DNA of 64,000 bases from an uncultured Saprospiraceae bacterium (GCA_964525915.1 CAZGKN010000002.1:1194-65193), one strand, 5' to 3'; numbered from the stretch's first letter, positions 55,002 to 61,587 are shown. Numbers and translations: made by a program. Notes: generated from the sequence alone by a model not told the origin.

Positions 55002-55400
55002 TTGTTCAGTCGGAGCATTGGGATATATTTTAAGGACGAGCGGAAAATCCAAATTTCTTTTGATAGTTTAGGTAATATAAGTTCGATTTATAATCGGGTT
55101 CCTGATGGAGTTCAAAGTATTCACTATTTTCCAAATGGGATGATTGAAGCAAAAGTTATGTTAGATAATGAGATCAGAATGCAGGGAGAAATATATTATT
55201 TTCATGAAAAATCAGGGCATTATATTAGTGTTCGTCAATATGTCAATGATACATTAGAAGGAAATAAATTTGATTACTATGACCGGGAAGGCACGGATAG
55301 TATGGTTCAGCATTATGTAAAAGGGTGCTGCAAGGGGCGGCTTGTTTTGGATAAGAAAGAAGAAGCCATAAGTGTGAGCGGCAGTTTTATAGCGAATTAA
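55002..55400 (+). CDS. MORN-variant (YwqK-like) repeat protein, probable orphan immunity protein, possibly N-terminally truncated
   Basis: Repeats of the type YFPNGMIEAK..GEIYYFHEKSGHYIS..EGNKFDYYDREG. TTG start only. Confidence 0.55.
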   Translation: MFSRSIGIYFKDERKIQISFDSLGNISSIYNRVPDGVQSIHYFPNGMIEAKVMLDNEIRMQGEIYYFHEKSGHYISVRQYVNDTLEGNKFDYYDREGTDSMVQHYVKGCCKGRLVLDKKEEAISVSGSFIAN

Positions 55401-55474
55401 TTTTCAAAGGATAAAACCAGGAATACGAGGTATCCGATTGGTGATCGGGGGCTTTATTATTTAGCGTAATCGAT

Positions 55475-55747
55475 TTACAGCAGATAATGCCCTTTGGCAG
55501 AAAGGATAAAGACTAAATCTTCTGAAACCTCATAAATCAAACGATGCTCACGGTTAATCCTACGAGACCAACAGCCAGTAAGTGAATGTTTAAGTGGTTC
55601 TGGTTTGCCTGTGCCAGTAAATGGGTGTTGAGCCAGTTCCTCCACAAACAAAGTAATTTTAGTTAAAACAGATTTGTTACCTGATTTTTTATGTTGCCTT
55701 ATATCCTCTTTTGCTTGTTCAGAAAATCGTAAAATATAGCTAGTCAT
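55475..55747 (-). CDS. yoeB: YoeB/Txe-family type II toxin (copy 1)
   Basis: 90 aa with ..GCWSRRINREHRLIYEV..ILSAKGHY. 4-nt overlap with the upstream antitoxin gene. Confidence 0.87.
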   Translation of the reverse strand: MTSYILRFSEQAKEDIRQHKKSGNKSVLTKITLFVEELAQHPFTGTGKPEPLKHSLTGCWSRRINREHRLIYEVSEDLVFILSAKGHYLL

Positions 55748-55962
55748 AAGCTATCAATAAAGGATTTAAGATTTTCCTTTTTGACTTCGGTAAAACTACC
55801 TTGAGCAATTTGCTTTTTACTTTCCATTATTTTTTCTACAAACTCAGGATTATAGCTATCATCCTTAGCTACTTCAAACTTGATTTTAAGAGCCTTCATA
55901 AAGGCTTTCAAGGCTTCGAGTTGCTCAATAGTAGGATGTGCAGTTACTTCAAGGGTTTTCAT
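55744..55962 (-). CDS. antitoxin partner of YoeB copy 1
   Basis: 72 aa, translationally coupled. Paralogous to 63490..63705 (shared ..AFMKALKIKF.VAK....PEFV.KI..). Confidence 0.65.
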   Translation of the reverse strand: MKTLEVTAHPTIEQLEALKAFMKALKIKFEVAKDDSYNPEFVEKIMESKKQIAQGSFTEVKKENLKSFIDSL

Positions 55963-56104
55963 AGAGTTGCGATATTTTTAAGTATAACAGCTGTTAAATC
56001 TTTTTGTAAAAGACCTCTTTTTGTTCTGCTTGCTGCTAATATTTTATCGAAAGTATTCATATTTATTACATTTGGTGTTTTATAGCACCCTAAAAGTCAA
56101 TATT

Positions 56105-57418
56105 ATGACAAAGATAGGAACAAAATTATGGGTATTAAAATTTAAAACTATTTCTATTTATAAAATACACCAAAGTTTGCCTTTACATATAAACAAAACG
56201 GAACAAAGAAATAGACTTTATGCTCATAGGAATATTACAAATATTCCCGCCTATGTCACCGCACAGTTGCAATCACCCAGCCCGGGAAGTGTCCAATCCG
56301 CCGACAGCACCTTTGAGTATGCCCTACGAGATCATCTCGGCAATACCGTAGTCTCCTTTGCCGATCAGGATGACAATGGCAAGATCGACCCTTTCGAGGT
56401 ACTACAGCGTAATCATTACTACTCTTTTGGTGAGCAAGGCAGGAAAGCCATCCGAAATGGCTTTTCGACGCCGCGAAACGGAGATAGCACTGATGGAAAA
56501 ATCGGGGCGTATCGTAGTCTGAACACATCCGAGGTACGAGAATGTGCTTCAGCGGCAGAGATCAAAGGTGACTGGGATCACACCACAAATCCGGTTATTA
56601 ATAACTATCTTTACAATGGCAAGGAACTCCACACGTGGGGTAGCAATAGCGGTGGCCGGCTAAACTGGCAGGACTACGGGGCGAGGTGGTACTCTCCGGA
56701 GATGGGGAGGTGGAACTCTGTAGAACCACTGGCAAGGAAGTATGCTCATATATCGCCTTATGCTTATTGTGCTAATATGCCGATTATAGCCACGGATCCT
56801 GATGGTATGGATATTATAATAGGTCATAGAAACGAGAATGGAAAAATAACCTCAAGGGTAATTTATAGAGAAGGTAAGCTATTTAATATGGATGGTAAAA
56901 CTGCTTACACAGGCAATAATTCATTTATTTTGAATACAAAAAATAGCATAGATAAAATAAAGTCCTCTGATATTTATGCAAGAAATGTATTAACAGTTCT
57001 TGAATATTCTCCAAGAAAACATGAAGTTTATAATTTGTTAAGTACTGATAAAATTGCAATACCAAACCATGATGATAGTGCTGTTTATCCAGATATGACT
57101 ACTATTCATATTGACCCCAACAAGCCCGCTAAAGAAGGCTCGATTATGTATTTAGATACTGAAATTACTGGTAATAAACGAATAAGTACTACAGCACATG
57201 AATTTATGCATTCTTATCAACATGATCAAGGTACAATATCAAACGAAACTATTGGGGGAATTGAAAATAATGAAATAGAAGCAGTTAATTTTCAGAATCG
57301 AGTAAATCCTTCATTGGGATTGCCACAAATGACTGAATATGGAGGAAAGAAAATTCCAAAAAGCAAGTTAGAAAATCCTAATAATCCTAAACATATTAAT
57401 AAATTTAGAGGTCGATGA
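56105..57418 (+). CDS. RHS cassette 1: 5'-truncated RHS shell end + core tip + HExxH metallopeptidase-like C-terminal toxin domain
   Basis: RHS-like sequence starts near 56250 (..YALRDHLGNT..YYSFGE..NNYLYNGKEL..WQDYGARWYSPEMGRW..SPYAYCANMPIIATDPDGM). Beyond 56810 it is an unrelated AT-rich domain with HEFMH at 57197-57211. The upstream part of the ORF (56021-56250) is AT-rich filler. Confidence 0.72.
   Translation: MTKIGTKLWVLKFKTISIYKIHQSLPLHINKTEQRNRLYAHRNITNIPAYVTAQLQSPSPGSVQSADSTFEYALRDHLGNTVVSFADQDDNGKIDPFEVLQRNHYYSFGEQGRKAIRNGFSTPRNGDSTDGKIGAYRSLNTSEVRECASAAEIKGDWDHTTNPVINNYLYNGKELHTWGSNSGGRLNWQDYGARWYSPEMGRWNSVEPLARKYAHISPYAYCANMPIIATDPDGMDIIIGHRNENGKITSRVIYREGKLFNMDGKTAYTGNNSFILNTKNSIDKIKSSDIYARNVLTVLEYSPRKHEVYNLLSTDKIAIPNHDDSAVYPDMTTIHIDPNKPAKEGSIMYLDTEITGNKRISTTAHEFMHSYQHDQGTISNETIGGIENNEIEAVNFQNRVNPSLGLPQMTEYGGKKIPKSKLENPNNPKHINKFRGR
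56665..56713 (+). repeat. conserved RHS core-tip DNA handle, copy 1
   Basis: ctggcaggactacggggcgaggtggtactctccggagatggggaggtgg. Near-identical stretches lie at 58278-58326 and 60134-60182. Confidence 0.85.
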
Positions 57419-59807: not shown

Positions 59808-59976
59808 TTAAGATAGAATTTCAAAAAGCTTGAATGAGGTGTTTGGACTTTTATTAAATGGCAAATGTCAGAGACTACATTCTTTGGAGGAACGACAAAG
59901 AGTCGCAGCGACCAGAAGTAAAGACACTTGGGACAACACTACAGATGCGATAAAGAATAACTATCTTTATAATGGT

Positions 59977-60104
59977 GAACGAGGTAGAAAAGGTCTTTGA
60001 ATAGACCTTTTCAACGAAGTGAAACGAAACGAAGGTTCATCCTGATAAGGTGAACCAAAGTGGAGTCAGAAAACTCTTGAGGCACGAAAGAGTGCTTCTG
60101 CGGT
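59977..60104 (+). other. 128-nt structured insertion inside the YNG|KE motif of cassette 3
   Basis: Absent from the homologous position in cassette 1. GGT is present at both junctions (59974-76 and 60102-04). Three stem-loops at 59988-60011, 60034-60056 and 60079-60098. Removing 59977-60104 restores one continuous frame. Confidence 0.65.
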
Positions 60105-60133
60105 AAGGAGCTACATGACTGGTCGGGTCTAAA

Positions 60134-60182
60134 CTGGACAGACTACGGGGCGAGGTGGTATATGCCGGAGTTAGGCAGGTTT
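60134..60182 (+). repeat. conserved RHS core-tip DNA handle, copy 3
   Basis: ctggacagactacggggcgaggtggtatatgccggagttaggcaggttt. Confidence 0.8.
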
Positions 60183-60852
60183 ACGGGGGTGGATCCGATA
60201 TCAGATCAGTATCCACATGTGAGTGTGTATAACTATGCGGAGAATGAGCCGGTGGGGCATATTGATCTTTGGGGTTTGCAGAAGGCTATTTCGGTGATAC
60301 AAATGGGTAAAAACAGTGAAGGAAAATGGTACACTAACAGTGCCTTTACAATGGAACGTGGTGATATGAGATGGAATAATTATTCCTCCAGTACTGATTT
60401 GGGGGCAAGAGGACATTTATTAGTAATCGATAATTTAGTGACAGGAGGCAGAGTGTCGGCATACAAGCAAACGCTTATAGATAGGATATTAAACAGATTT
60501 GATGGCGGAGGACCTGAGACGGAAGTAGGAGGCGGTACAATGTACTTTAAGACCGATGGGATGGGTAAGGAAACCCGATTTAGTCCGAATGCAGATATAG
60601 GAGAGAATATTGATGACCTGATGGGCGCATTTGATCTGGCAAAAGCTGCCGGAACAAGCATAATGGGACTGGAAGGATCGGCAAAAGATATAGGGAAAGG
60701 AGTAGCAGAAATATTGGATTTTTCTAATAATGCTTATCAGGCTAAAGATGGGGTAAGAGATGCTATAAAACCAACAAAAGTGGAAGATAAAGATACCACT
60801 ATTAAGAATGGGAATCAATATATTCACTATGATAAACAAGACTTAAAAGAAA

Positions 60853-61587
60853 ATGGAAGGCATAAAGGGTAAAAGAGGATTTTTTTTTCTGGTAGTAAGT
60901 ATTATTCTGATTTTCTTTTATTTTTTTACAAAATATTTCTACACTAGGAAAAGAGATGAAAAGGGAATTGTTGTAACAACATATAATCCCATCAGTAGAA
61001 ACTATCATCAAAAAAATTATAATGACCATTGTAAACTGATCAATGAGTTTTATTATAATAAAAATGGAAAATTTGGTGAGGAAGTTGGATATTATGATGA
61101 TGGAACAATAAAGTTTATCGTGCCATATTCAAATGGGGTAAAGGATGGCGTAAGTAAATTTTATACATGTTCAGGTCAAATGAAAGCTCTAAATTATTAC
61201 TTCCGAGGATATCACTATTTTAAAAAGATATTTATTTATGATAAAGGTAAATTTGATTCTTCAGAGACCATTATTCCCGTGCTTCAGGATGTTCGTTTAA
61301 ATTTAAAAGGTGATAGTTTGATAGCGGATATACTAGTATATGATTATAGATTGGATTATATTAGAGACAGTCTAGAATTGTTTTATGAATTATATGATAC
61401 AATTAATCGGGATGGAGTTTTTCCTTATACACCAAGTAATTCTATTATGGTTGGTGGGTATGGTATTAAAAAATTGAAGTTTCATATAGTAGACAAGAAA
61501 AAAAAGTTCTTATTTGTAATGATTGGAGAGAAAAAAAATGGCAAAATAAAAGAAAATGAGGCATTAATTAAGGAAATTGACCTTTGA
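60853..61587 (+). CDS. membrane-anchored MORN-variant (YwqK-like) repeat protein, putative immunity protein for cassette 3
   Basis: Overlaps the toxin ORF end by 20 nt. N-terminal TM helix. Repeats of the type GEEVGYYDDGTIKFIVPYSNGVKDGVSKFY. Confidence 0.58.
   Translation: MEGIKGKRGFFFLVVSIILIFFYFFTKYFYTRKRDEKGIVVTTYNPISRNYHQKNYNDHCKLINEFYYNKNGKFGEEVGYYDDGTIKFIVPYSNGVKDGVSKFYTCSGQMKALNYYFRGYHYFKKIFIYDKGKFDSSETIIPVLQDVRLNLKGDSLIADILVYDYRLDYIRDSLELFYELYDTINRDGVFPYTPSNSIMVGGYGIKKLKFHIVDKKKKFLFVMIGEKKNGKIKENEALIKEIDL

Follow-up and report, generated by a model that had tools for sequence, protein, structure and literature searches.

What is the fate of RHS toxin tips that are found with no full-length rhs gene beside them, and of what use could they be to their host? 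The question is raised by a cluster of such tips at positions 55,002 to 61,587 of a 64,000-nucleotide (nt) stretch of DNA from an uncultured Saprospiraceae bacterium (GCA_964525915.1, CAZGKN010000002.1:1194-65193), the whole of which is referred to here as the window. The original prediction described three cassettes, each consisting of a plus-strand open reading frame (ORF) that shares the RHS shell's C-terminal tip and continues into a variable domain, followed by small immunity-type genes. On balance, the evidence assembled below favors the reading that the cluster is an orphan array, stranded and in part decayed, that sits on an acquired island, with immunity as its likeliest remaining use.

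RHS tips without a shell

In hidden Markov model profile searches, all three ORFs matched the family TIGR03696 (Rhs_assc_core), as had been expected, with E values of 5.6e-12 for cassette 1 (56021/56105-57418), 8.8e-14 for cassette 2 (58198/58222-59124) and 3.1e-6 for cassette 3 (60162-60872). The core ends in each case at a DPxG-type motif (DPDGM, DPQGM and DLWGL, respectively). Because the cassette 3 ORF begins within the core, its score (27.6 bits) falls under the cut-off of 32.5.

The RHS modules of this locus stand without a same-strand full-length rhs gene directly upstream, and the claim that none is in view was borne out on both flanks. Six full-length Bacteroidota RHS shells of 1,843-2,348 amino acids (aa), taken from related loci and searched by tblastn against the 64-kb window, matched only 56282-56824, 58261-58473 and 60084-60332, that is, the tips. 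Furthermore, the longest ORF of the window has 1,088 aa and the longest of a cassette 465 aa, and ORF scans, tblastn and gene calls that took in 55 kb upstream and 10 kb downstream of the cassettes detected no full-length rhs gene. The upstream 55 kb instead holds housekeeping genes and cargo of the type IX secretion system (T9SS), including DNA polymerase III alpha, TonB/ExbBD, PBP1, LpxB and a SprB/Por_Secre_tail protein, while the 10 kb past the right window edge, read from contigs with the same sequence, is again housekeeping in nature (M49 peptidase, UDG, DinB, metallophosphatase and aminotransferase).

The cassettes lie on a horizontally acquired island of ~9.8 kb (54764 to ~64536), whose insertion site in this Saprospiraceae-like bacterium is the 5' end of hlyIII. 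The island boundaries, three toxin-antitoxin (TA) modules and a structured insert, all described below, were overlooked in the original prediction. Alignment of the two boundary repeats showed that their homology begins exactly at GGTAATCAGACAG, and the right hlyIII fragment joins directly onto a structured-element copy, el4, that is truncated. From left to right, the island carries a lone immunity-type ORF, a YoeB/DUF2683 module on the minus strand, cassettes 1 to 3 with their downstream genes, a ParE-type module flanked by 110-nt repeats, a second YoeB/DUF2683 module and, outside the window, a fourth RHS remnant that consists of shell only (...LLQRNHYYSFG) and precedes the displaced hlyIII fragment. 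The boundary repeats, cassettes (with C-terminal domains CT1, CT2 and CT3) and their downstream genes, some with transmembrane (TM) segments, are as follows.

54539-54763, no strand assigned: left direct-repeat copy, 225 nt, comprising the first 168 nt of hlyIII and 57 nt upstream; 87% identity to the right copy
55002-55400, plus: lone immunity gene, 5'-truncated, corresponding to residues 36-161 of a 160-aa lipoprotein, signal peptide and lipobox lost
56105-57418, plus: cassette 1, a 437-aa gene call from ATG 56105, the ORF being open from TTG 56021
57415-57999, plus: putative immunity gene 1 by position and sequence, 194 aa, lipoprotein-type N-terminus (...FSYFAC), no family match
58222-59124, plus: cassette 2, core only at 58261-58422 (ending in DPQGM), CT2 at 58423-59124
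59129-59476, plus: lipoprotein-type gene after CT2, 115 aa
59454/59487-59807, plus: multi-TM gene after CT2, 106/117 aa, from gene calls
59808-59976, plus: upstream remnant of cassette 3, a degenerate element copy (el6) followed by the shell segment SKDTWDNTTDAIKNNYLYNG (59913-59976); aligned to cassette 1 at 56452-56620
60105-60872, plus: downstream part of cassette 3, core KELHDW...DLWGL to 60278, CT3 at 60279-60872; called ORF from ATG 60162
60853-61587, plus: putative immunity gene 3, 244 aa, N-terminal TM segment, weak MORN-like repeats
window-equivalent ~64537-64761 (L001 8963-8739), beyond the window: right direct-repeat copy, the displaced hlyIII N-terminal fragment adjoining the M49 peptidase gene

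Several features of the surroundings were noted in passing. A 1,088-aa ORF (45623-48889, plus strand), 6 kb upstream of the island, has no Pfam family on record and is unmatched by the full-length RHS shells, and a 331-aa ORF upstream of the island gave no Pfam or NCBIfam match. The gene for the SprB/Por_Secre_tail T9SS cargo protein (39248-41911, minus strand) shows an internal periodicity of ~231 nt with a 41-nt core present six times. A 62-nt direct repeat with 92% identity occurs at 48908-48969 and 53855-53916, both copies being intergenic and outside the island, and may belong to a dispersed repeat family of the source genome.

Kinship with classical arrays and recombination at the handle

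Two loci from JGI sample 3300022738, L107 and L108, which were reached through homologues of CT3, point to the origin of the array. In L107, a 2,626-aa RHS protein with a signal peptide is encoded directly ahead of a 160-aa lipoprotein gene, to which the 55002 ORF is 65% identical (tblastn), and this gene is followed by a CT3 homologue (70-73%). L108 has a 2,640-aa RHS gene and, behind it, ~10 kb in which orphan tips and immunity genes are arrayed, among them relatives of the 60853 ORF. Because both loci carry homologous modules directly downstream of signal-peptide RHS genes of 2,626-2,640 aa, the island looks like the distal part of a classical array, in which displaced tips trail one main gene, with the cut falling within the first immunity gene. 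The resemblance includes the core handle, with 74-84% nt identity, and the type of junction upstream of cassette 2; the two loci differ from the island in having the main gene directly upstream, and in having neither TA modules nor the structured insert. The close match of the 55002 gene to the gene directly after the L107 RHS also indicates that it has lost its toxin. On this point, the prediction of a lone upstream remnant stood, although the gene is a 5'-truncated lipoprotein gene rather than one of the MORN type.

According to this model, the tips would have arisen by successive displacement at the conserved core handle of an ancestral locus, after which a segment beginning within the first immunity gene would have moved, or been left behind without the main gene. 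The 5' copy of hlyIII that is now fused to intact hlyIII would be an arrival on the island, replacing the earlier 5' end together with its upstream region.

Junction types and CT domains have been reassorted between lineages, which is direct evidence for past recombination at the handle. The junction 5' of cassette 2, cttagcacacaaacaaagacac...HGVSDTEKGYGSW, is unusual; L107 has a homologous one, there in front of the CT3 homologue. The cassette 3 handle recurs at every L108 cassette and at the tip of the L108 main gene (74-84% nt identity), and handle identity to the main-gene tip of a relative reaches 84% over 99 nt. Within these relatives, several orphans were seen to start alike, at tttttacaat|GGTAAGGAG (L108 ~3990-4064 and ~9928-10002; L109 ~1452-1526), with a conserved AT-rich junction of ~75 nt in front that forms a repeated intergenic cassette boundary, and some handles in the L108/L109 array carry a 1-nt frameshift.

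The reassortment between lineages is also in line with a silent offensive reservoir, in which cassettes would be swapped in trans, by recombination at the handle, onto a distant full-length rhs gene. In enterobacteria, it is documented that orphans are displaced and recombine (bioRxiv 10.1101/2025.05.08.652813), and in the island the ORFs of CT1 and CT2, like the CT3 domain, are intact. However, the 49-nt handles, which had been described as near-identical DNA, share just 43/49, 37/49 and 33/49 positions in pairwise comparisons of the cassettes (67-88% identity), with longest exact runs of 14, 20 and 8 nt, and in cassette 3 the handle is interrupted by a 128-nt insert. Structural variants, moreover, were absent from four independent assemblies: positions 54000-64000 (10,001 nt) are 100.000% identical in three independent JGI/ENA assemblies, and a fourth is identical over its 9,607 nt. 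The island sequence is thus one widespread clone with no rearrangement visible.

Protein clusters give the same picture, those of the cassette proteins having 1-11 members on 27-41 contigs and being private to the source organism. The sole cluster variant that could bear on a reservoir, P0052 (417 aa), is a rare variant of 58222-59476 in which cassette 2 and its downstream gene are fused; it was considered as a recombinant and rejected, as it represents toxin-immunity read-through and not a shell fusion. A second rare variant, P0062 (162 aa), differs from the 55002 ORF in its N-terminus as a result of an indel upstream of 55002. A protein search with the shell remnant of cassette 1 returned six short proteins and no relative above 60%, a weak argument against a reservoir, as the search also missed the query protein's own cluster. 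An active reservoir in trans is therefore considered distinctly improbable, and of the two fates that had been proposed for the cassettes, stranded or recombining in trans, the former fits the data.

Detachment of this kind is not confined to the window. Of the related Bacteroidota RHS tips, 33 have 10 kb of upstream flank in full, and in 10 of these 33 a same-strand shell body is missing upstream; several related loci are arrays of short tips alone. The best 120 matches to the cassette 3 core are all proteins of 161-496 aa, many of them encoded on large contigs, some of megabase size. TA modules related to those of the island also stand beside RHS tips elsewhere: YoeB/DUF2683 modules lie among the tips of L043 (3691-4154) and beside a degenerate detached tip in L050, from Ca. 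Parvibacillus calidus (13486-14342), both loci being from Saprospiraceae. These detached tips, arrays of short tips and accompanying TA modules indicate that the arrangement is recurrent in the phylum, and not the oddity that it had been taken for. The L050 modules are accompanied by a gene assigned by eye as a PemK/MazF-like toxin-type gene and by a primase-like fragment.

Decay and the case for immunity

With no shell and no signal peptide, delivery of a toxin from this locus is not plausible. By the length criteria applied in Rhs surveys, in which orphans have at most 350 aa and N-terminally truncated forms 350-799 aa (bioRxiv 10.1101/2025.05.08.652813), cassette 1 falls among the truncated forms, and cassettes 2 and 3 count as orphan modules. 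Cassette 1 consists of a shell remnant from ~56282, an in-frame copy of the structured element (el1, 56432-56556), core to DPDGM at 56795-56809 and CT1 at 56810-57418. It had been credited with ~130 aa of shell, ~42 of which come from the insert, a segment that relatives do not have. Cassette 2 is reduced essentially to the core. Cassette 3 had been read as a single ORF but is in two parts. The first runs as far as NNYLYNG (to 59976), then come 128 nt with three stops, and the coding sequence picks up in a different frame with KELHDWSGLNWTDYGARWY at 60105. Together with the 55002 ORF, now lacking its signal peptide, and the shell-only fourth remnant, these are signs of further decay.

The frame-broken cassette, truncated immunity gene, shell-only remnant and secondary insertions would also be expected if the whole segment, immunity genes included, were non-functional debris on a TA-stabilized island, and the tiny protein clusters, private to the source organism, fit this view, as does the presence of only one promoter-like motif positioned to drive the plus-strand array. 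However, ~5.5 kb of AT-rich DNA carries seven plus-strand ORFs in a row, three with a CT domain and four of the immunity type, all of them uninterrupted, which weighs against debris because stop codons would accumulate quickly in such DNA, and the island has been kept identical across many samples. A pure relic is plausible but considered unlikely, if less so than an offensive reservoir.

The C-terminal domains are mutually unrelated, as predicted, and each is followed by small genes whose products have lipoprotein signals or TM segments; neither these genes nor the domains gave a significant Pfam match. Visible AT-richness had been ascribed to the toxin domains, which holds for CT1 (GC content ~0.30) but not for CT2 and CT3 (0.40-0.47); the AT-rich parts are the immunity genes, which are co-directional and have a GC content of 0.25-0.31. 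The proposed MORN(YwqK) type found only faint support, the 60853 ORF scoring 12.4 bits against a MORN_2 cut-off of 29.6 (E=0.2) and the 55002 ORF giving no match, and the two ORFs are not homologous to one another. The 60853 ORF is 35-41% identical to two genes of the L108 orphan array that have faint MORN_2 matches.

CT1 contains an HEFMH motif and has sub-threshold metallopeptidase matches. A word-indexed protein search gave no CT1 homologues and the PDB no relatives, while tblastn gave one distant match, at an RHS tip in L076. AlphaFold (AF2) models of CT1 and CT3 were unusable, with mean predicted local distance difference test (pLDDT) scores of 33.5 and 33.7. CT2 is glycine-rich and has 30 representative homologues, all of 84-544 aa, with an RHS core upstream in the 10 of 10 that were inspected. 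Both CT2 and CT3 recur at RHS tips elsewhere, and the gene positions in the array would fit a toxin-immunity order.

Could the tip-plus-CT proteins be expressed alone as free-standing short toxins, acting as addiction or abortive-infection modules or traveling by means of a carrier encoded elsewhere? A -7 promoter-like box of the Bacteroidota type, TACATTTG, lies at 56067, upstream of cassette 1, which could be translated from its own ATG at 56105 as a cytoplasmic protein of 437 aa, and short RHS-tip ORFs dominate the database matches, also on megabase contigs. Against this stand the lipoprotein and TM nature of the immunity-type proteins, which suits toxins arriving from outside, and the missing shell, without which there is no encapsulation and the autoproteolytic release that typifies full-length RHS proteins would not be expected to occur. 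The analysis found no precedent, and this explanation is regarded as very unlikely.

The products of the downstream genes are, by the same features, consistent with immunity against envelope-acting toxins. In the favored reading, that of an orphan array retained for immunity, the intact, envelope-targeted downstream genes would be co-transcribed from the promoter-like site 5' of cassette 1 and, by analogy with acquired interbacterial defense clusters, would act as orphan immunity against the RHS toxins of neighbors, while the TA modules would stabilize the island. In Bacteroidales, clusters of orphan immunity genes on mobile elements protect against the toxins of neighbors (bioRxiv 10.1101/471110).

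Several observations weigh against this reading. The case for an immunity role consists of gene position and ORF integrity only, and because all assemblies are 100% identical, no test of selection is possible. The reading frames of CT1, CT2 and the CT3 domain are likewise unbroken, so decay is not restricted to the toxins. CT3 is followed in relatives by a different immunity family, which makes pairing by position uncertain. No integrase or recombinase domain was found among gene calls in or beside the island. Finally, coverage extends to 55 kb upstream and 10 kb downstream, and a distant full-length rhs gene may be present elsewhere in the source genome; in a scan of genome contigs, the best locus among the matches listed was 41% identical.

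The TA modules and the repeats associated with them are as follows.

55475-55962, minus: TA module 1, type II, with a YoeB/ParE-type toxin at 55475-55747 (YoeB_toxin, E 3.5e-25, 88.3 bits) and an antitoxin at 55744-55962 (DUF2683, E 2.5e-22, 79.3 bits)
61647-61760, plus: direct repeat, copy 1; 110-115 nt, 92-93% identity between copies, ending in a terminator-like hairpin
61931-62458, minus: TA module 2, type II, with a toxin at 61931-62227 (ParE_toxin, E 5.3e-7, 30.6 bits) and an antitoxin at 62228-62458 (Unstab_antitox, E 3.1e-5, 24.3 bits)
62705-62819, plus: direct repeat, copy 2, which together with copy 1 brackets TA module 2
63236-63705, minus: TA module 3, type II, YoeB and DUF2683 by precomputed Pfam annotation; a paralogue of module 1 (77-80% nt identity)

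The Pfam scores of modules 1 and 2 are all above cut-off. Module 2 looks as if it had been inserted along with a duplicated gene end. A partial third copy of the 110-115-nt repeat was noted at 55440-55466, and the stretch of the repeat with the terminator recurs in L107, behind the immunity gene. The intergenic segment 62860-63170 contains a run of short near-perfect hairpins, such as caacccttatcagggttg, cccccaattaaattggggg and tgccctctcagggca.

The structured insert and comparison with known systems

A hairpin-rich element of ~125 nt is present in five copies, all within RHS shell tips of this one island, at three distinct positions and in one orientation.

56432-56556, plus: el1, after YYSFG, in frame, 42 codons, flanked by GGT/GGC
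~59885-59912 (clearest part), plus: el6, in cassette 3 at the position equivalent to el1, degenerate and 5'-truncated
59977-60104, plus: el3, 128 nt after YLYNG, with three in-frame stops and a frame shift, flanked by GGT/GGT
from ~63990-64000, running off the window, plus: el5, diverged, upstream of remnant 4
outside the window, plus in window orientation: el4, after YYSFG, interrupted by an insertion of ~240 nt and cut short where it meets hlyIII'

Copies el5 and el4 were read from the minus strand of L001 (~9497-9385 and 9264-8962). The ~240-nt insertion in el4 (L001 ~9240-9005, window-equivalent ~64260-64495) is AT-rich, has an apparent flanking duplication of ~9 nt (GAAAAGTC-) and repeated 'cgcaaag/ccacaaag' motifs, and is probably a small mobile repeat in its own right.

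In relatives the sequence runs straight through these sites, as YYxFG|MExxGxW and YLYNG|KEL, and the copies are therefore clean insertions. Between el1 and el3 the ends are conserved, and three compensatory pairs distinguish the first hairpin. Relative to shuffled sequences, the fold of el3 is much the more favorable, with z scores of -4.5 as RNA and -4.3/-4.8 as single-stranded DNA, on either strand, and that of el1 is less striking, with a z score of about -2.1. Because three successive displaced tips share its position, the ancestral full-length RHS gene appears to have tolerated the insert in frame, which suggests that each displaced tip inherited it from there.

Searches for the element elsewhere gave little. 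Rfam gave no family at E<=1, and nhmmer found no copy in 100 related loci (~1.3 Mb), nor in the rest of the 64-kb window or its flank. A metagenome pattern scan gave 17 matches to the pattern only; the match that was inspected, L105, falls within an SMC-like gene, and for the remainder nhmmer recovered the pattern segment or nothing. Two viral scans produced nothing usable (one pattern-only match, uninspected), blastn against PLSDB gave no match, and the repeat search reported no inverted repeat joining the element ends. Known classes were considered and rejected: an integron attC site, as the ends are not complementary; a typical miniature inverted-repeat transposable element (MITE), as terminal inverted repeats are not evident; an IS200/IS605-type palindrome-associated transposable element, as the two subterminal hairpins are dissimilar; and an intron or translational bypass, as no features support either except the flanking GGT codons.

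The element resembles Rickettsia palindromic elements (RPEs) and intragenic MITEs in being a small hairpin-rich intragenic repeat with several copies, one of them in frame and translatable, but it differs from these in having no evident terminal inverted repeats or dispersed copies, its five copies lying within one 10-kb island (PMC10969869). In-frame palindromic elements such as RPEs thus offer the nearest analogy, and the element is left unclassified. That it is a previously undescribed small mobile or recombination element specific for the final ~250 nt of RHS shells, where it would insert behind the Gly codons of YYSFG| and YLYNG|, is a tentative idea to which a low probability is attached. 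If true, the element could mark or create the breakpoints of RHS tip exchange, as a cassette-junction site, or be an RPE-like parasite of toxin genes, and if mobile or recombinogenic, it would bear on the shuffling of polymorphic toxin tips.

The array as a whole provides a worked example, beyond Enterobacteria and gut Bacteroidales, of the fate of displaced RHS tips, which can leave the main gene and persist on islands that TA modules would stabilize, where their likely remaining value is immunity and not attack. Because detached tips are apparently frequent in environmental Bacteroidota, counts of 'RHS toxins' in metagenomes would overstate offensive capacity.

The array shares with the orphan modules of enterobacterial rhs loci a core tip with a DPxG-type end, a variable C-terminal domain, a small downstream gene, same-strand tandem arrangement and past recombination at the core. 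Unlike those modules, it is not adjacent to a full-length rhs gene, its handles have diverged further and are far shorter, TA modules on the opposite strand are interleaved, and the whole forms a bounded island in hlyIII. It also belongs to a member of the Bacteroidota with T9SS cargo (SprB, Por_Secre_tail) nearby, and its full-length relatives have Sec signal peptides and not PAAR- or VgrG-linked N-termini. With the acquired interbacterial defense clusters AID-1/rAID-1 of Bacteroidales (Ross et al., bioRxiv 10.1101/471110), the island has in common a consolidated low-GC array of orphan immunity-type genes on acquired DNA in the same phylum, along with repeats that may correspond to their repeated intergenic sequences. 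The rAID-1 clusters are defined by a XerD-like tyrosine recombinase at the cluster 5' end and at least two co-directional genes with a GC content of 41% or less and repetitive intergenic sequences (bioRxiv 10.1101/471110). In contrast, the island has no XerD-like recombinase, retains toxin tips and is known from sequence alone, and its immunity genes match no known family. These genes are co-directional and low in GC, and the repeats present are the 110-nt pair and the structured insert, not a regular intergenic motif. The array is a new example of an already known type of orphan module that is common in the phylum, and its one odd feature is the RHS-specific structured insert.

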